64,000 nt of DNA, taken from positions 78,675 through 142,674 of the forward strand of contig CAYWJO010000003.1 of NCBI GenBank assembly GCA_964458565.1. The letters are read 5' to 3'. Below, in pieces: positions 16,821 through 61,146 of the stretch. Source of the stretch: an uncultured archaeon. GTDB lineage: Archaea > Asgardarchaeota > Thorarchaeia > Thorarchaeales > Thorarchaeaceae. Position 1 is the first letter of the stretch; every line of letters begins with the position of its first letter. The position numbers and the translations under genes were made by a program. The notes beneath the pieces were generated by a model that made no database searches, was not told where the DNA came from, and saw nothing but the letters and a program-made list of their open reading frames with translations.

Positions 16821-17996
16821 GTGCTTAAATACCCTTTACGAGACAAAAAGATGATAGAAATGGTTAAGCCGCACCGCAGTCCGAAAGGACTCTTTGACCC
16901 TTACTATGTACCAGAGAATATCCTACACAGGGATAGAGAACTCGATCAGATTGAAGGAGTCTATTCTGACTCTTATGAGAGCGAATACGGTGTGAACTGT
17001 CTTGTTCACGGAATATCTGGAGTGGGGGCTACTGTGTTTTCAAGGTATTTTCTGACAAAGATAGTACCTCAGCAATTTGAAGCTCATACAATCTATGTGG
17101 ACGCAAAGAGAAAAAGTCCTACTGAGATTGTGAGCGAGCTGAATGATAAGATTCACAGGTTGGCAAACAGACCTATTACCGTAGCATTCGATCTTGATGT
17201 TCTTTGGATGCAATTCAAGAGAACCGCCAGTGATACTTCCAAGAGGACTGTATTTGTTCTTGATAATGTTAATGAGAACAACGAGGAAATCTACACGAAG
17301 GTAGCACAACTCTCTAAGGAGATCAAAGCCAGCACAATCGGTGTGCTGAATAGTCACGATTACAGAATGCTGACGAAGGGCATGGCTACACAGATGGCAT
17401 ATGACTTTGAAATTCCACTTGACACATACACTCAATCCCAGCTTTATGAGATTATTAGAATGCGCGTAGAAGATACCTTTCCTTTGGGACTTACTGATGA
17501 GGTCATACGATACATCACAGATATCGTGCTTGAGTTTGATGCAGGAAAACCAAAGACCTCAATTGAAGCATTGAAAGCTCTCTGGCCTTTAGCACAGAAA
17601 GGAAAAGAGATTGACTCGGATATTGTAAGAGGTGCTACATCCAAGATTACATCATTCATTCAAGATCAGGATTACATGGATATTGTTGAAACCATAAGCA
17701 TGAACGACTTCATGACTCTGCTGGTTCTAGAAGCAATGAGCGAACATCTCATGCGATACAAGACAGAAACCTACATTGATAGGCAGACGTTGAATGAGCT
17801 CGTGATTATCAAGTTTGAAGAGCTTCAGGTCCGCTATTCCAATGAAGATATCGAGAGAAGCCTGCAGACTCTTATTTTTCAAAGCATTATCTTTGAATCA
17901 GGGTATTCGAGGAATCTCCTTTATGTTTTGGTACCACCTGAAATTCTTCACGATACCTCGCTCAGTTTAAGACGTGAATTAGCTCGCAGGAAGTGA
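16821..17996 (+). CDS. Orc1/Cdc6-like AAA+ protein with degenerate Walker A/B (probable pseudo-ATPase)
   Basis: 391 aa. N-terminus YVPENILHRDRELDQIEG matches the Orc1/Cdc6 lead-in. Walker A position reads GISGVGAT (Lys replaced by Ala). Walker B reads VFVLDNVNE (DE changed to DN). Sensor-1-like VLNSHD is present. The C-terminal region is winged-helix-like. Confidence 0.5.
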   Translation: MLKYPLRDKKMIEMVKPHRSPKGLFDPYYVPENILHRDRELDQIEGVYSDSYESEYGVNCLVHGISGVGATVFSRYFLTKIVPQQFEAHTIYVDAKRKSPTEIVSELNDKIHRLANRPITVAFDLDVLWMQFKRTASDTSKRTVFVLDNVNENNEEIYTKVAQLSKEIKASTIGVLNSHDYRMLTKGMATQMAYDFEIPLDTYTQSQLYEIIRMRVEDTFPLGLTDEVIRYITDIVLEFDAGKPKTSIEALKALWPLAQKGKEIDSDIVRGATSKITSFIQDQDYMDIVETISMNDFMTLLVLEAMSEHLMRYKTETYIDRQTLNELVIIKFEELQVRYSNEDIERSLQTLIFQSIIFESGYSRNLLYVLVPPEILHDTSLSLRRELARRK

Positions 17997-28587: not shown

Positions 28588-29355
28588 GTGATGAGGTTGC
28601 CGCACTCTGACATGAAACTAGGCTTTCAGACAGCCGACAAGGCCATCCGGAGAACAGTGAGCACCGGAATAAAGGCATTAGACACTCTTCTAGATGGCGG
28701 TCTCGAACTTGGAATCATGCATCTCTTCTATGGCGACCGTAGTCTCTACAGGGACATCCTGAAGATGGCAGTACACATTCAATTACCAGAAGAACGTCGA
28801 GGTTTATCTAGTCCAACCATCGTCATCGATAGCGCCAATATGTTGAAGATTGAGGCACTCACTGAGTACGCCTTTGAATTTGACCTTGAACCGGAGTATG
28901 TGATGGATAGGGTCTATATCTCACGGGCATTCAATAGCTCACAGACTTACGACCTCGTGATGAATCAGCTCGAGTCGTTCCTAGAAAGAATCCCTGCAAA
29001 GTTACTGATAGTCTCAGGACTGCCGGACCTCTACCTCAGTGAAGGAATCGATGGAGAGGGGTTGCAGCAGATAACGCATATGGCAACCAAGGTGAAGAAT
29101 CTGGCTCTTCAGAGAAACATTGCTACCTTGGTCACCACACAACCTTCACCCAAGAATCCACGGTTTCCTGCCGGAGGAAAAGCACTGTCCAGCAGTGCAC
29201 AGATTCATGTTCATGTTGAGGAGTCAAAGTCCTATACACACTACACTCTTGCAAAGCATCCGCAGTTTCCGGTACGCAGAACCTCACGGGCAAAGACCAT
29301 AGATTTTGGTAGCACTCTTCCTCTATCCTACTTCCTCAATCAAGAGGAAGAATAG
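28588..29355 (+). CDS. RadB/RecA-superfamily protein with lost Walker A and B (probable pseudo-ATPase)
   Basis: 255 aa. TGIKALDTLLDGGLELGIMHLFYGDRSLYRD aligns with the RadB N-terminus (TGxKxLDxLLGGG...YGPPGSGKT), but GKT is replaced by RSLYRD. The Walker B hhhhD position reads LLIVSG. The C-terminal core (NIATLVTTQ) matches the RecA fold. Confidence 0.55.
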   Translation: MMRLPHSDMKLGFQTADKAIRRTVSTGIKALDTLLDGGLELGIMHLFYGDRSLYRDILKMAVHIQLPEERRGLSSPTIVIDSANMLKIEALTEYAFEFDLEPEYVMDRVYISRAFNSSQTYDLVMNQLESFLERIPAKLLIVSGLPDLYLSEGIDGEGLQQITHMATKVKNLALQRNIATLVTTQPSPKNPRFPAGGKALSSSAQIHVHVEESKSYTHYTLAKHPQFPVRRTSRAKTIDFGSTLPLSYFLNQEEE

Positions 29356-29373
29356 AGGGGGTGCGTGTACCCT

Positions 29374-32300
29374 CTACTTCTTGCCTGTGAGACTCTTCAC
29401 AAATTCATCAACCAGCTCACGTGAGAGATGCTCGGCTTGCTCCATGATAGTATCGATCTCGTGAGGTGGCACACCCTTCTCCTCGAGTTCTTTTCTCAAC
29501 TCTGCTAGTTCAAAGGGACTGAGTTTCTCATCAGGGCTAGCAGGTCGTTCTGGTAAGTAGTCCTCAGGTCGTTTATCAGCCATCCGTTTTGCTTCGGGTT
29601 CAGCTTTCATGATAGTGGATTCCATCTCTTCGTCCACATCGATCGGCTCATCGAAGTCGATTGGTGGTTTCTTAGGTCGGTCCTCATCAACAAGGAAGAT
29701 TGAGTCTTCTTCAGGACCTCGATAGTCGACTCTTGGGACCTCACCCTCTTCAACTCCTGCAACCGTTCTTGAGGCCTGATCTGCAACCTCCTCGAGTACC
29801 TTCTCAACACTCTTACCATCACGTCGTGCTGCTCTGATTGCTTCCTGATAGATGACTTCTTTCACGAAAGCAGCCTGCTCACTCAACCTCATCTTGGAGA
29901 TGTCAGCCTTGAACTCGTCAAGCTCATCAGGGCTCAGATGAGTAAGAATAGAGAGCTGTACGAGTAACTCACCCATCTCTGGCACTGCAACTATAACAGA
30001 TTCTGATGGCAGCTGGTCTGGTCTTCGAGTGATTTTGACCTGTTCAAAGGTATCATTGAATAGCTCAGCAATCAGTTGATCTCGCCTTTTAGCCTCATCA
30101 ATAGGCTTTGGAACCTTACCTTTGCCTAGAGCTTTAATCTGTCCATTGATCTGACGAAGTCTCTTTGGTACGCTTAGCACTCTCACGTACAAAGCACCAA
30201 GCAATAGTAGAATGAATACTATTGGAGTTCCATATGATGTGACAGTGGTCAGTGTGTCTTGAAATTCTGTGGGAGTTATTCCAACCAATAATTCGATATC
30301 ACCATCAACATGGTTAACGCGATAGATTCTAATATCAATAACAGAAGACACATCAGGAAGACCAATCGGAAAAAGAACAGGAGCTTCAATTGTTAGTCTG
30401 TAAATTCCATTTCCAATTTCTTCCCAAGATGTGACATTTACAACTTCGGGATTTGATGATATGACCTTAATATAAGCCCCAGTTATTCCATCGCCAACAT
30501 GACCGGGCCATGCATCATAGAATCTTAGCTCTACCGTAGTCGGTACAGCATAATTAATATTGATTCTATCCTCACTGTCCACATTGTTTGATGTAAAGGC
30601 AGTATCTGTGGGGACATCTATAATCGTGATGAATATGGTGATAATAGATTGAGTTCTGTTCGCAGTTCTGAGAGGGATTGTAAATCGATATCTAGCATCA
30701 TCAACTCTGAAAAGACTCGTATCAAAGGTGAAACTGTAGTTACCATTTCCGAGCTCAATAATGTCAAGAGGACTTGTATCATATACAGGATGATAGTATC
30801 TAGCATAATCAACCTCATCCAAGGTCCAATTGGCTCCTTCAACCCCTCCAATAAATGGTGTGTCCCATGGAGCAACTGTGGCATTATAAAATAATATCAC
30901 TGTGATAGAATCACCAAATGGCACCACAAGCTGAGTGGCATCCATACTGGAGTTACTGTACTTTGGCGGATAAACAACAATCTCCGTTGGAATGGATCTT
31001 ACCCTCACCCGAACTGTTCTAGGAATATAATCATAATTATCCTTTCTAAAGTCTACAGTTAGGGAATACTCTTCAGTACTTGGTTCGACAAGAGTGCTGT
31101 CAATGAAAATACCATATGTTCCATTCCCAAATGGCGTCGCATTGAATTTCCTATTCGCCCACTGGTATGTAACAGTTGCATTGATAACAAGTGATTCATG
31201 ATCCTCATCAACAAAATTGAAACCATAAGTTCCATTTCCACCCCAAAATATTGCGGGTATTTCTGGTGCTTCAACCAAGGTATGAATTGCTCTGATACTA
31301 AGGGTTGTTGTTGTGCTATTCGATGTGTATTCCTTGTTGAGTGGAACAGCAGATATTCTCAATGTATAGGTCTGTGCTGGATATTGACTGGTATCGATAG
31401 AGACATTGTAGTATCCCCAATAATTTGCTCCAAAAACTGACCGATTTAAGAGATATAGCGGATATGGTGTTCCTTCACCGATCAGGCTCATTGTTACAGT
31501 TGCATCATTTCTCCAATGTTCGTCAGGATTCTCTGTTTCATTGATATAAGGTGCATATACCCACACACCCACCTCAACAATCTGAGACCAATAGAAGTTC
31601 TCATCAGCAATGCTTTGTGAATTAATATCAAGCTGAACAACAGTCATAGTCTGTTTTACAACGAGAGTCATGATGATTGGTGAGATGAGATAGTTGTTCT
31701 TTGATGCTTCAATGACCAGAGTATACGTTCTAGAAGCCTCTGCATCATCAGTATCGAGGATAAAGGAATAGTTGCCTCCGGTTTCCTGCGTGAAGTATTC
31801 AGATTGCTCGCTACCAAAATCCCAAGTAATTAGTACATTTGCATCAATTACTCCTTCACCAGCATAGGGAGAGTCACTCACTTCTAGATTCACTCGGATA
31901 GTCACTTCAGAACCCCTAGTTGTATCAAGAGTGAAATCATCACCTGATGGATTAATACTCACAGGAATTTGGAGTATTGTCAATGTGACTGATTTTGTCT
32001 GAGTTATGTGATTCTCATAACTAGCAATTATCTGGATGGCATAGGTTCCGTGAGGTACTAGTTGTGTATCTAAGGAGAATGTGAAATTACCAGGAACTCC
32101 TGTAGCTATGAGGGGGATGTCTGAACCTAGAATCCAGCTATAGGTCAAATCACCAGCTAGGACTGGTCTACTGTGTACAGTATCATAATAGACAGCTGTA
32201 ATCGTCACTTCGTCTCTCCAGTAAACAGAAATACTAGAATCTGAAAGAGTAAGGTCGGTCTCTACTTGTTTAATTTCTATGTCGAAGTATACAGCAGAGA

Positions 32301-57374: not shown

Positions 57375-59711
57375 TTATTTCTTTCCCCCTCTCAAACCAG
57401 GGAACCAATACTTCGTTCCACCTGAGAAACTCTTCTGCAGTTTTGCCACTCCACGTTGTATGAGTAGTTCCAGAGTATTCATCACACGTTCTTCAGTCCA
57501 ACCTAAAGTTAGTACTGCTTCCTCTATAGTGAGACCACCTTCATGATCTGCAGCAATCTCTAGTATCTGGTGCGGGTCATCAGTAAGAGCAACGGGAATG
57601 AATTGAGCAATTCGTGCTCCGGATAATGTCGAAGTGATGCCTTCGATCAATCCATCTCGTTTCATATCGTCTAATATTGTATCGATCTCATCAGGTACGG
57701 TATCCCATCCTTGCTCATCAAGCTCAACCAAAAGATCTGAGAGAAGCATGATACCACCAGATTGTTTGGAGTCCTCAGCAATTCTGAGAATATCGCGTCT
57801 GATACCATCAGTCCTATCATCACGTTTCAATAACCGCTTAACCATACCTTTGCGAGTTTTTGCCTGAGATATCCAGTTTTCCGGATCATATCCAAGCTCA
57901 ATAAGCAACTCTTTCAAAGCACTACGATATGCAGGAATACTCAGGAGTGTTGGGCCATGTTTCTGAAATGCATTCCACAATCTGGACCTTACTGAATCAA
58001 TACGACCAGCCCTCTTAACAAGTCGGTCGAGAACAAGTTCTAGTCGCTCTTCGGAGGGCATTGGTTTTAGTGTTATAGGGATAACTGCATCCTGAACTGT
58101 GTCTATCGTAAACTCAATCGATGAGTCGAGGAACCCGAATGCACTCACAGTTCCGCTATATCTTCCTGGTAGAAGTGATGCTTTTACAATTCCAGTTGAT
58201 AGTGATTGAAATCGTTGAGAACCAAATACAATATTAGCCTCATCGATGGGTTGTCCTTCCTCGTCCATTAGATGAAACCTAACATTGCACATTGTATCAT
58301 CAGGACCTATTACTTGAGCTTTCATACTATCAGGAAGGTCGATCTCAGGGATACCATAGAGAACAGACTTCAGGCTTTCGTATAAATCAAGTTTTGCAAA
58401 ACCATCGGCAACTAGACCATTTCCGCCTTCACGAATAATTTGGCGACCTATCTTCAATGATAAGAGATTGAGTGTTTCTGACTCAAGACGCACATGTTTT
58501 CGCAATGCTACATCAGTTGACATCCGTTCAGATACACGTTCTTTCAACCCACTGAGTAGAATCGAAGATTCGGTAAAAGGATTAACAAAATCCTTACGAC
58601 GACTCACTCGTTCATCAGTGAATGTAAGATGCGATGGAGGAGTTATCTCCACTTCGAGTTTACCTCTACGAGTGAATCCCACCAGGATAAATGGCACTAG
58701 AAGTATATTCCCTTTTGATGAGAGGTCAACAGAAACACAGGGTGTCGAGATGGAGTCACCCTGGATTTTCAATTCACGGATGACTTTCCTGCTCCACTCC
58801 ATTTTCTCATCCAGTATAGCTAGCTGTTCATCGAATTTTTCCCTTAACCTCAGTGATTTTGCAATGAAACTTGACCTACGTTCTTCGTCACGTTTCAAGG
58901 CGGTCTTTCGGGCTTTCAGCGTCGAAGCGGATTCCTTTGTCTTCTCTTGTGTGTATCTGATTTCAAGATTTGCAACCTCTTGTTCTAAATGTGAGATTCT
59001 TAGTTCTAGCCGATCTAACTGAGATTTTACCTCATTTTCAAGAGACGCTATCTGTTGCTGAGTGATATTGGTAAGCACACGCCTTGCACGGGAATAGGTT
59101 TCATCAGCAATATGGAGGTAACGAAGCGTTGAATTCAATAGAGAGCCCAAGGTTGTCATATCTGGAAATTCGCTACCTGTAGAAAGAATGAAAGAGTACG
59201 GTTCAACATTGTCAATCGTTGGCCATTCCAATAACTCATGTGGACTTGAATCGTGATTTTTAGAGATTAAACCAGCTATCGACACTTGACGTTTCTCATC
59301 CAAGAGATCCAATGTTTCTTGAAAGAGTGCGATTGCATTTAGTACATCCTCTTCAGTATTAATATCCTCAAGAAAATCAAGAAGTTCATCCAAACGGCTA
59401 TCTTGAAGAGGTGTCAATTCCGATGAAACAAGACCTAGGTGTTCAACGAACGAAACACGATTAGCATCACGAATCTGTATTATCCTGATAGGTAAGTATG
59501 CTTTCAGGACAAACTCCAAATCCCGACCATTTAGGTCCTGAAAAGCCTTTAATACTACAGCTGCAATGAAATAATCATCAGGAACCGCTTGCTGAACAAT
59601 TGGTCCCCCCTCTAATCGATGAGTGCCTGTTGTCATGACAGGTACGATTAGATTGAAATGATTGAGTTCCATTGGGAGTCCCTCAGTGCACTGTTCGTGT
59701 ATGCTTTTCAT
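57375..59711 (-). CDS. large cytoplasmic coiled-coil protein with C-terminal beta-sandwich and tandem winged-helix-like region, unknown function
   Basis: 778 aa with no TM segment. Central heptad-rich segment (about aa 215-300: ...LENEVKSQLDRLELRISHLEQEVANLEIRY...). Sits 100 bp downstream of flotillin on the same strand. Confidence 0.55.
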   Translation of the reverse strand: MKSIHEQCTEGLPMELNHFNLIVPVMTTGTHRLEGGPIVQQAVPDDYFIAAVVLKAFQDLNGRDLEFVLKAYLPIRIIQIRDANRVSFVEHLGLVSSELTPLQDSRLDELLDFLEDINTEEDVLNAIALFQETLDLLDEKRQVSIAGLISKNHDSSPHELLEWPTIDNVEPYSFILSTGSEFPDMTTLGSLLNSTLRYLHIADETYSRARRVLTNITQQQIASLENEVKSQLDRLELRISHLEQEVANLEIRYTQEKTKESASTLKARKTALKRDEERRSSFIAKSLRLREKFDEQLAILDEKMEWSRKVIRELKIQGDSISTPCVSVDLSSKGNILLVPFILVGFTRRGKLEVEITPPSHLTFTDERVSRRKDFVNPFTESSILLSGLKERVSERMSTDVALRKHVRLESETLNLLSLKIGRQIIREGGNGLVADGFAKLDLYESLKSVLYGIPEIDLPDSMKAQVIGPDDTMCNVRFHLMDEEGQPIDEANIVFGSQRFQSLSTGIVKASLLPGRYSGTVSAFGFLDSSIEFTIDTVQDAVIPITLKPMPSEERLELVLDRLVKRAGRIDSVRSRLWNAFQKHGPTLLSIPAYRSALKELLIELGYDPENWISQAKTRKGMVKRLLKRDDRTDGIRRDILRIAEDSKQSGGIMLLSDLLVELDEQGWDTVPDEIDTILDDMKRDGLIEGITSTLSGARIAQFIPVALTDDPHQILEIAADHEGGLTIEEAVLTLGWTEERVMNTLELLIQRGVAKLQKSFSGGTKYWFPGLRGGKK

Positions 59712-59811: not shown

Positions 59812-61146
59812 TTACTTCTCATCTGGAGCCGCTAATTCACCTAACGACTCCTTCATCAGACCTTTCATGTCGAAACCCATCATTTTCGCCATCATGAGCA
59901 TCGGGAGAAGGACATTTCCAAACACCTGGAATGCGCCAGCACCGGCACCTTCACCTTCTTCACCACTACCACCTGCACCACCACCAAACAGTGTGACATC
60001 ACCGATATCAATCTGCTCGTAGATCTTAGGTAGCATTTGGAGGAAATCACGAGCGAAAGCCTGTGGGGAATAGTCCCGTGCTGCTTCGAGAGTTTTCTTG
60101 ATACCTTCAGCTTCAGCCGTTGTAATCTTACGAATCTTATCAGCTTCAGATGCAGCTACCACACTAATCTTTTCAGCTTCAGCTTGGGCCTCTTGAAGGA
60201 TACTCTGAGCTCTGACTTCAACCTCTTGCTTAATCTTTCTCTGCTTCTCAGCTTCAGCCGCGAACTTAGCAACCTCAAGGTCCTTTGAAGCCTCAACCTC
60301 AGCCTTTTGCTTCTCATAGCGTTTCTGCATCAAATCTTTCTGAAGCTCAATCTCCAGAACACTCTGTTCACGTTGCTTCTCAGCTTCCTGAATAGCACGA
60401 AATTGTGACTGTTCCTTTACACCGACTTCTTTATCACGTTCGATCTCCTGTTGTTTGAGTAATTTGCTTCTTTCGATATCTTTTAGGCCAGTTTCCTGTT
60501 CAGCTTCAATAAGAGCAATCTGTGCTTTTCTGTGCATTTCAGCCTCACGTGGTTTAGACATATCACTAAGAAAAGCATCATTGACCACAACAACATCAAC
60601 GAGTTCTACAGTGACTACTTTCAAACCCCATTCACTTACTATGTCAGTCAGTTCTTTCTTGATAGCCTCAATAATTAACTGTCGCTCTTCCAATATCTCC
60701 TCAACAGCAAGTTGTGCACAGGCAGTACGTATGACTGATTCAATGATAGCTGTAAGACGCGCAGGGATTTCACTCCACTTCACGTTGTTAATTGTGGCAA
60801 TAGCATTCTCAGCTTGCCACTGAAGTACAGCGCTAAGTTTAATCTTCTGTTTCTCTTTTGAAAGGACAGACTCAGCTGAAATATTAAGCTGTTGTACCGT
60901 CCTGTCTACTGCAAGAATACGGTCCAAAAAAGGAATCCGAACAACCATACCACCTTCGCCTTGCTTGATGGCTTTACCTCTTCTAAGATGCACATAGAAG
61001 ATGTTAGGGTCAAAGATACGTACGTATTTCTTAACGTAGAGAGCGAGTAATAACACACTTAGGACGATTGTCACAAATATCAGGGTACCAAGATTTTCTG
61101 CCAACCAATCCGTCCATCCCGCTTGCATTTGTTTTTCTACTCTCAC
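59812..61146 (-). CDS. flotillin-like SPFH/band-7 protein
   Basis: 444 aa. N-terminal TM anchor, SPFH domain, long Ala/Glu/Gln-rich coiled-coil (EA repeats) and a Gly-rich C-terminus. This is canonical flotillin architecture. Confidence 0.8.
   Translation of the reverse strand: MRVEKQMQAGWTDWLAENLGTLIFVTIVLSVLLLALYVKKYVRIFDPNIFYVHLRRGKAIKQGEGGMVVRIPFLDRILAVDRTVQQLNISAESVLSKEKQKIKLSAVLQWQAENAIATINNVKWSEIPARLTAIIESVIRTACAQLAVEEILEERQLIIEAIKKELTDIVSEWGLKVVTVELVDVVVVNDAFLSDMSKPREAEMHRKAQIALIEAEQETGLKDIERSKLLKQQEIERDKEVGVKEQSQFRAIQEAEKQREQSVLEIELQKDLMQKRYEKQKAEVEASKDLEVAKFAAEAEKQRKIKQEVEVRAQSILQEAQAEAEKISVVAASEADKIRKITTAEAEGIKKTLEAARDYSPQAFARDFLQMLPKIYEQIDIGDVTLFGGGAGGSGEEGEGAGAGAFQVFGNVLLPMLMMAKMMGFDMKGLMKESLGELAAPDEK

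Follow-up and report, generated by a model that had tools for sequence, protein, structure and literature searches.

A short gene in the 64-kb window analysed here (the whole 64,000-nt stretch of Thorarchaeaceae DNA) raises the question of which family its protein belongs to, and what a recombinase-fold protein could do after losing the residues that bind ATP. The sequence-only reading of the locus had proposed a catalytically dead RadB abutting a giant gene. We assign the protein by homology to the iRadA clade, and we favour, as the probable answer, an adaptor that works without nucleotide and for which we propose three contact points. Elsewhere among the archaea, iRadA is a non-catalytic subunit of a damage-inducible PolB2 (Dpo2) translesion complex (PMC4104785, PMC11791011). 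The protein kind has been described since 2013–2014 and was modelled in 2025, so the window protein does not found a class of its own; the "dead RadB" reading no longer stands.

The mechanically defined ORF begins at a GTG (28588..29355, + strand, 255 aa), and the database gene model (P0001) begins at ATG 28612 (247 aa). The start is likely ATG 28591 rather than the GTG, because ORF position 2 is Met in most homologues (88 of 121) and because of the spacing to an upstream TATA-box-like element (Table 1). The position of this element also suggests a leaderless mRNA.

Table 1. Features of the iRadA-like locus, in window coordinates
Feature	Position	Strand	Remarks
Orc1/Cdc6 homologue	16821..17996	+	Walker A Lys replaced by Ala (GISGVGAT)
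Giant gene 1	18041..27619		Inserted between Orc-like gene and GcvH
GcvH-like gene	27750..28232	-	Part of conserved neighbourhood
Zinc-ribbon gene, 66 aa, four Cys	28264..28464	-	Divergent from iRadA, conserved in Thorarchaeota loci
TTATATT, TATA-box-like	28560..28566	+	About 28 nt upstream of ATG 28591, read from sequence
iRadA-like CDS	28591..29355	+	254 aa from likely start ATG 28591; ends with TAG 29353-29355
GFQTAD, RadA/Rad51-type FxxA polymerisation motif	28621..28638	+	Low-confidence flexible N-terminal arm
Degenerate Walker A, GDRSLYRD	28732..28755	+	From family alignments
Degenerate Walker B strand, LLIVSG	29002..29019	+	From family alignments
C-terminal tail TLPLSYFLNQEEE, PIP-like (xxxLxxFL) with acidic residues	29314..29352	+	Low-pLDDT tail
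Spacer between convergent stops of iRadA and giant gene 2	29356..29373	.	18 nt
Giant gene 2, 5599 aa	29374..46173	-	Convergent neighbour, conserved synteny partner

Alignment with Pyrococcus furiosus RadA (PDB 1pzn) pairs GDRSLYRD with GEFGSGKT at the P-loop (GEFGSGKTQL/GDRSLYRDIL), KLLIVSGL (within AKLLIVSGLP) with KLLIVDSL at Walker B, and IATLVTTQ (within NIATLVTTQ) with IAVFVTNQ at the core strand, bearing out the earlier motif readings, including the retention of the last strand. Across the family, the Walker A site has the consensus G-[DE]-R-[SG]-L-H-[DNE]-D. The P-loop glycines are gone, the Lys position is Arg in the window protein and Asp, Asn or Glu in most other members, and the Thr position is an invariant Asp. 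The Walker B Asp position is occupied by Ser, Thr or Ala in the group of the window gene (paralogue A) and by Pro in a second group (paralogue B). The loss of these Walker A and Walker B residues (Lys/Thr and Asp) goes back to the ancestor of the whole family.

Other functional positions have changed as well. With positions numbered as in human RAD51 (our own mapping), Ser or Gly takes the place of the trans-acting His294 in the family, Pro that of Gln268 in most members, and Gly, Gly and Ile those of the L1 DNA-binding residues Y232, R235 and R241; the L2 region is six residues shorter in the window protein than in P. furiosus RadA (1pzn alignment). The window protein contains no GxxxxGK[ST] motif and no helix-hairpin-helix (HhH) N-terminal domain, its N-terminus beginning 11 residues ahead of the FxxA motif. 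Since the catalytic positions are substituted and the substitutions are conserved, the protein cannot bind ATP in the canonical manner, and the alignment indicates that the primary ssDNA-binding site has probably been lost too.

What remains is a well-conserved RecA-type core. Pfam Rad51 matches residues 23–186 (E = 1e-16), and the best PDB sequence match is P. furiosus RadA (1pzn, E = 8e-20), a resemblance that chance could not produce. A search of 5.8 billion proteins returned 256 homologues; the best 120 of these are 55–100% identical to the query, and nearly all taxon-labelled proteins among them are from Thorarchaeota. Forty-six representatives share 48 invariant columns at a mean identity of 63%, and a gene of this kind occurs in at least 65 GTDB species assemblies.

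AlphaFold2 with the family alignment gave a confident RecA-type fold (pLDDT 88.9, pTM 0.84), disordered only at residues 1–7 (pLDDT < 50, 247-aa model) and over the last ∼15 residues. Foldseek against the PDB ranked RAD51, RadA and DMC1 protomers first (E ∼1e-22, TM 0.82–0.84). Fold-comparison values descended from RAD51C and yeast Rad51 (26.7 each) through XRCC3 (25.9), RAD51D (25.8) and DMC1 (24.8) to XRCC2 (21.3), RadB (21.1), RecA (20.9), KaiC (about 19), Sso2452 (17.0), Elp4 (16.4), FlaH (16.1) and Csm2 (10.9). Structure prediction and fold search, two of the checks proposed with the sequence-only reading, uphold its view of a RecA-fold protein from a recombinase family that has lost its ATPase motifs. 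Relationships to KaiC, Elp4/PAXNEB (Elp4-6) and FlaH were considered and rejected, the best sequence and fold matches lying elsewhere.

The closest relatives outside Thorarchaeota are likewise Walker-dead. When 1.84 billion cluster representatives were searched by profile (19 matches below 1e-30 and 425 below 1e-10), all full-length matches ranking above the first canonical RadA proved to lack the Walker motifs. They measure about 230–350 aa and agree in their P-loop (YG[DS]R), their Walker B site ([ST]G) and a RAF[NT] segment. Where a taxon label is given, it names another Asgard lineage (Ranarchaeia or Lokiarchaeota/Promethearchaeota) or Bathyarchaeia. The canonical RadAs looked up among the matches came from other phyla; Thorarchaeota presumably carry a canonical RadA as well.

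The published family in question is iRadA, for inactivated RadA (arCOG04294/arCOG07763/arCOG08101), which serves the PolB2/Dpo2 mutasome as an accessory subunit (Makarova et al. 2014, PMC4104785; Timinskas et al. 2025, PMC11791011). The names iRadA and PPB2 were coined in the latter study, PPB2 (arCOG07300, DUF8156, Pfam PF26485) being a protein with a conserved N-terminal MGRT motif; in our PPB2 alignment, M, G, R, T, P and R are invariant at the N-terminus. The same study modelled a complex of PolB2, iRadA and a PPB2 trimer with high confidence, in which a PolB2 loop that mimics the Rad51 oligomerisation (FxxA) motif docks on iRadA, and it reported that orc1/cdc6 genes are enriched near PolB2 operons. 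The Sulfolobus PolB2 (Dpo2) serves as an extender polymerase in translesion synthesis (PMC8764526).

Of four genomic contexts looked up for the Walker-dead matches, three (L008, L009 and L090) are iRadA operons. Downstream of the Rad51-like gene of L008 (Ranarchaeia) come first an 89-aa protein with the N-terminus MMGRTVPS and then a family-B polymerase with HGIVDS; L009 has at this place a 93-aa protein that begins (V)GRTVPS and is most similar to Helarchaeota-labelled proteins; and in L090 and L091 a family-B polymerase follows directly. HGIVDS at the PolC motif, present in the L008 and L090 polymerases, is a PolB2 signature (cf. PMC8764526). By gene content and sequence motifs, L008, L009 and L090 match the published iRadA-PPB2-PolB2 operon.

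HMMs built from operon-type iRadAs score 140–171 bits (group b) and 109–141 bits (group c) on the Thorarchaeota paralogues A, B and C, compared with 74–121 bits for a canonical RadA/Rad51 HMM. In a rough distance (NJ) tree, the Thorarchaeota sequences group together as a single clade next to group b, apart from the clade with intact Walker motifs. On the strength of these scores and this tree, together with homologous C-terminal tails and an Orc1/Cdc6 neighbour, we place the Thorarchaeota proteins in the iRadA clade by homology. Like other iRadAs, they consist of a RadA/Rad51 core without the N-terminal domain, have their ATPase residues replaced, with the YG[DS]R and [ST]G substitutions in common, end in a PIP-like tail, and are encoded near an Orc1/Cdc6 paralogue, as in PolB2 operons.

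The tail TLPLSYFL, followed by EEE, lies at the disordered C-terminus (pLDDT 54–60 in the AlphaFold2 model) and is nevertheless conserved as TLPL[SD][YH]F[LF]; across the 46 sequences, P, L and S never vary and T and F hardly do. Its L-x-x-F-L spacing fits the hydrophobic core of archaeal PIP boxes (QxxLxxWL), without the canonical Gln. Thorarchaeota paralogues end in TLPLSYFL, TLPLDYFF or TLPLEHFM, and other iRadAs in TTLDFWM, KKLDQWL, YTLDFFL or MALDQFL (cf. ..TLDxW[LM]), a C-terminus of the form L-[DS]-x-aromatic-hydrophobic being common to paralogues B and C and to the operon-type proteins. By sequence, the Thorarchaeota tails and those of other iRadAs are positionally homologous. PCNA-binding motifs are frequent, though not universal, at published iRadA C-termini (PMC11791011).

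At the other end of the protein, the F, T, A and D of GFQTAD (residues 12–17) are invariant in the 46 sequences, and HMMER aligns G12-F13 with G85-F86 of human RAD51. A GFxTAD-type motif, nearly invariant as a whole, occurs in paralogues A, B and C, and F-x-T-A-D is kept in all groups. In other iRadAs it is sporadic: an Fxx[AG] stands in the equivalent segment of 6 of 18 testable group-b proteins, compared with 11 of 13 canonical RadAs. The equivalents of the RAD51 residues that form the FxxA pocket (I78, I80, Y110, L123, M106 and V109) are conserved and hydrophobic, positions that also belong to the protein core. We found no description of an FxTAD arm in the iRadA papers (PMC4104785, PMC11791011). 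The sequence-only reading had overlooked this motif, as well as the PIP-like tail and the paralogues.

Thorarchaeota iRadAs differ from the operon-type proteins in further respects, namely gene number, distance from PolB2 and PPB2 genes, and a fixed neighbourhood of GcvH, zinc-ribbon and giant genes. When one genome of each GTDB species was scanned with search patterns derived from paralogue A, at least 80 loci emerged; those with taxon labels are all Thorarchaeota, or are labelled Promethearchaeota or Hermodarchaeota. Three or more sequence groups can be told apart: paralogue A, to which the window gene belongs, whose Walker B site reads [STA]G and which contains PAGG; paralogue B, with PFQTAD, LLILPGL and PPVG; and the further groups C and C2. 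Two or three paralogues occur together in at least 14 of 65 assemblies, with up to three per genome. The neighbours of paralogues B and C encode arrestin-like, TPR, transporter and Yip1 proteins and offer no DNA-repair clue.

Neither PolB2 nor PPB2 was found within ∼10 kb of ∼80 Thorarchaeota loci or anywhere in the 64-kb window. The search, with a PPB2 HMM and PolB2 tblastn, covered 1.36 Mb and up to 10 kb on each side of a locus, and its only matches fell in the non-Thorarchaeota loci L008, L009, L090 and L091. Database searches with PPB2 returned no Thorarchaeota-labelled protein among the best 120 matches, and the accessible part of the PMC11791011 supplements holds no entry containing "Thorarchae". 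A PolB2 partner encoded in trans is nonetheless plausible for Thorarchaeota, because a PolB2 labelled "Ca. Thorarchaeota archaeon" is aligned in PMC8764526.

As an iRadA-clade adaptor, the window protein could make its three contacts as follows. The TLPLSYFL-EEE tail would bind PCNA; the RadA-type acceptor surface would take an FxxA-like peptide, which PolB2 supplies in the published models; and the GFQTAD arm would be donated to a partner, which could be RadA, a second iRadA paralogue or a PolB2 whose gene lies elsewhere in the genome. The protein would then act as an ATP-independent adaptor in DNA-damage tolerance. The fold, the loss of the ATPase motifs, family affiliation, motif conservation, paralogy and synteny are directly observed; binding to PCNA, the choice of partner and the damage-tolerance role are what we infer. 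The Pol V mutasome (UmuD'2C-RecA) offers an analogy, in that a recombinase-fold subunit serves a translesion polymerase (PMC11791011); it differs in that RecA is an active, ATP-bound, borrowed recombinase, whereas iRadA is a dedicated, ATP-blind paralogue.

Several observations sit less easily with a mutasome reading: no PolB2 or PPB2 gene lies nearby, FxTAD is sporadic in other iRadAs, the tail lacks the PIP Gln, and the tree is rough.

The strongest competing explanation, which we nevertheless consider unlikely, is a mediator independent of PolB2, in which dead paralogues would assemble head-to-tail through their FxTAD arms and cap or nucleate RadA filaments, possibly while tethered to PCNA. 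It draws on the RadA-type GFxTAD being invariant in all three paralogues, on the absence of an N-terminal domain, on the assemblies with two or more paralogues, on the lack of a PolB2 or PPB2 gene nearby, and on RAD51C, XRCC3 and RAD51D being among the closest structural neighbours; paralogues without the N-terminal domain cap RAD51 filaments, with caps formed by RadB, Rad55 and XRCC2 modelled or solved (PMC7618403). Against it, the highest sequence affinity is to operon-type iRadA rather than to RadA or RadB, the L1 residues are replaced and L2 is shortened, and published modelling finds PolB2 binding to be specific to iRadA (PMC11791011). A related and equally doubtful proposal is that Thorarchaeota iRadAs form a PolB2-independent module, whose two or three nucleotide-blind paralogues would polymerise head-to-tail by way of the FxTAD arms and dock on PCNA with their tails. 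If true, such a module would connect the sliding clamp with RadA filaments or with stalled forks and would be an archaeal, independently evolved counterpart of eukaryotic Rad51-paralogue scaffolds such as BCDX2 and Shu.

Eukaryotic Rad51 paralogues (XRCC2, Rad55) and Csm2/Psy3 resemble the Thorarchaeota proteins in that several non-recombinase Rad51-fold paralogues occur per genome and act as scaffolds, some of them without the N-terminal domain or the ATPase motifs. The Shu-complex proteins Csm2 and Psy3 are not known to have Walker motifs. To RadA, Rad51 and Dmc1 themselves the window protein is tied by its best PDB sequence and fold matches and by the retained FxxA motif and linker, LP.E.GGL...IDS and RAFNS; it differs from RadA/Rad51 in lacking the HhH domain, the P-loop, the Walker B Asp and the trans-acting His, and in its altered L1 and L2 on our RAD51 mapping.

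To our knowledge, iRadA has so far been described solely as a partner of the translesion polymerase PolB2 within an operon, and there is no biochemical study of an iRadA by itself. In the searchable literature, we found no description of the orphan context of Thorarchaeota iRadA, its paralogue expansion, its invariant FxTAD arm or its synteny with Orc-like, GcvH and giant genes. Being unlinked, duplicated and equipped with a RadA oligomerisation arm, the Thorarchaeota proteins offer a natural test of what the pseudo-ATPase itself contributes, with clamp tethering, RadA docking and hetero-oligomer formation as candidates. They are also a further example of how recombinase paralogues have diversified, found among the prokaryotes most closely related to eukaryotes.

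The neighbourhood of paralogue A follows the order malic enzyme, M28 peptidase, Fer4/CCG, FAD-binding, Orc1/Cdc6-like (+), GcvH (-), a 66–72-aa zinc ribbon (-), iRadA (+) and giant gene (-). In other Thorarchaeota, the Orc1/Cdc6-like gene directly adjoins the GcvH-zinc ribbon-iRadA block; in the window, giant gene 1 separates it from GcvH. The Orc1/Cdc6 homologue of the window matches PDB 2qby_A (E = 1e-12) and TIGR02928 (E = 1e-21), and the zinc-ribbon gene is probably co-transcribed with GcvH. Downstream, the convergent orientation described in the sequence-only reading holds, although the gap between the stops is one nucleotide shorter than its 19 bp. An AGAGGG-N10-CCCTCT inverted repeat overlaps the stop codons of both iRadA and giant gene 2.

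Could the protein instead be functionally tied to the giant surface protein, for instance as a cytoplasmic binder of its conserved C-terminal tail? The comparison covered 35 Thorarchaeota species loci whose sequence continues for at least 3 kb downstream. In 32 of them the gene faces a convergent ORF that is 900 codons or longer and homologous to the window giant genes, at a median stop-to-stop gap of 6 bp, so the adjacency noted in the earlier reading is real and conserved. We still regard a functional tie as very improbable. Convergent orientation excludes co-transcription, the whole ∼20-kb block from malic enzyme to GcvH is equally syntenic, one complete genome has a 637-aa gene at the giant-gene position, paralogues B and C and the non-Thorarchaeota iRadAs have no adjoining giant genes, and the remaining iRadA family is tied to DNA polymerase genes. 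No functional tie to the giant gene was found in this analysis. Given the orientation, the conserved block, the 637-aa exception and the paralogues and out-groups without giant neighbours, the adjacency seems to reflect conserved synteny and not a shared function.

A divergent RadB orthologue is less probable still. RadB, a euryarchaeal RadA paralogue, keeps Walker A and Walker B and is not known to have an FxxA arm. The window protein is, like RadB, a short RecA-core protein without the N-terminal domain, and RadB has been proposed as a RadA-filament cap (PMC7618403). Its sequence similarity to RadB is, however, much weaker (PDB E = 0.87, against 8e-20 for RadA), and NCBIfam RadB models reach only 37 bits (TIGR02237, cut-off 172.4) and 34 bits (NF006861, cut-off 278). 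They are outscored by the RadA models (78.7 and 68.5 bits), which rank best along with those for Dmc1 and Rad51; the RadA equivalog score of 78.7 bits is itself below its cut-off of 259. The RadA-specific segments LPEERRGLSSPTIVIDS and RAFNSSQ and the FxxA arm are present, and the Walker motifs, unlike those of RadB, are lost. The N-terminal TG..LD.LL.GG pattern earlier taken as a mark of RadB is generic to RadA, RadB and KaiC. In sequence and fold, the protein is nearer to RadA/Rad51 than to RadB, and nearer still to iRadA.

A decaying pseudogene or spurious ORF, which the missing catalytic motifs might suggest, is refuted almost beyond doubt by the conservation pattern, with its invariant columns and substituting residues that are conserved in their turn, next to a confident fold prediction and the spread of the gene over GTDB species assemblies. 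For annotation, these Thorarchaeota genes are best labelled iRadA-like, rather than RadA, RadB or "hypothetical".

In other Thorarchaeota, a homologue of Orc1/Cdc6 directly adjoins the block formed by the GcvH-like, zinc-ribbon and iRadA (Walker-dead RadA-core) genes, an arrangement that recalls the reported enrichment of orc1/cdc6 around PolB2-iRadA operons. The Walker A motif of the window's homologue reads GISGVGAT, with Ala in place of Lys, and this protein is presumably the "first" dead P-loop protein implied when the sequence-only reading described iRadA as a second one. The Orc1/Cdc6-like and GcvH genes were adjacent in all five other contexts inspected (L002, L003, and L005-L007), whereas giant gene 1 lies between them only in the window's genome. 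Because giant gene 1 separates these two genes, the iRadA block is here flanked on both sides by giant genes, which have in common a conserved transmembrane segment and a cytoplasmic C-terminal tail. The tail of giant gene 2 contains an FxxA-like stretch, SPFELAELR, whose counterpart in giant gene 1 is SVFELEELR; the Ala is not conserved, and the likeness to FxxA is probably a coincidence.

Within the block, the zinc-ribbon gene is on the same strand as GcvH, 31 nt upstream of it. Its product (66–72 aa) was kept in all Thorarchaeota contexts inspected, and the 66-aa protein of the window has only weak Pfam matches (Ogr_Delta, E=7e-4). The median gap between the convergent stop codons is only 6 bp across Thorarchaeota, and the inverted repeat around the window's spacer may act as a bidirectional terminator common to iRadA and giant gene 2.

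Features of the window and of homologous loci (L-numbers) in other genomes
Feature	Position	Strand	Remarks
Orc1/Cdc6 homologue	16821..17996	+	2qby_A E=1e-12; TIGR02928 E=1e-21, score under TIGR02928 cut-off
Giant gene 1	18041..27619	-	3192 aa
Zinc-ribbon gene	28264..28464	-	four Cys (CPKCG...C..EECGYSG); divergent from iRadA
iRadA/giant gene 2 spacer	29356..29373		18 nt, within AGAGGG-N10-CCCTCT
Giant gene 2, C-terminal tail	29374..30200	-	
778-aa protein	57375..59711	-	EAP30/Vps36-family match E=8e-6; coiled-coil match
SPFH/flotillin-like gene	59812..61146		follows the 778-aa protein gene
iRadA paralogue B/C	L072 9989..10729		
iRadA paralogue B/C	L082 9995..10744		
Ranarchaeia PolB2	L008 9241..12204		

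Many Thorarchaeota genomes encode one or two further Walker-dead iRadA proteins elsewhere (paralogues B and C, loci L062-L089). The typical convergent neighbour of paralogue B is either a 552-aa zinc-ribbon protein or an arrestin-like protein of 284–300 aa matching Arrestin_N/C and Vps26.

The PolB2 of the Ranarchaeia iRadA-PPB2-PolB2 operon carries an intein, its Intein_splicing match being flanked by two DNA_pol_B segments. Farther along the window, the EAP30/Vps36-family and SPFH/flotillin-like genes are ESCRT-related and of eukaryote-signature type, as expected for an Asgard genome.
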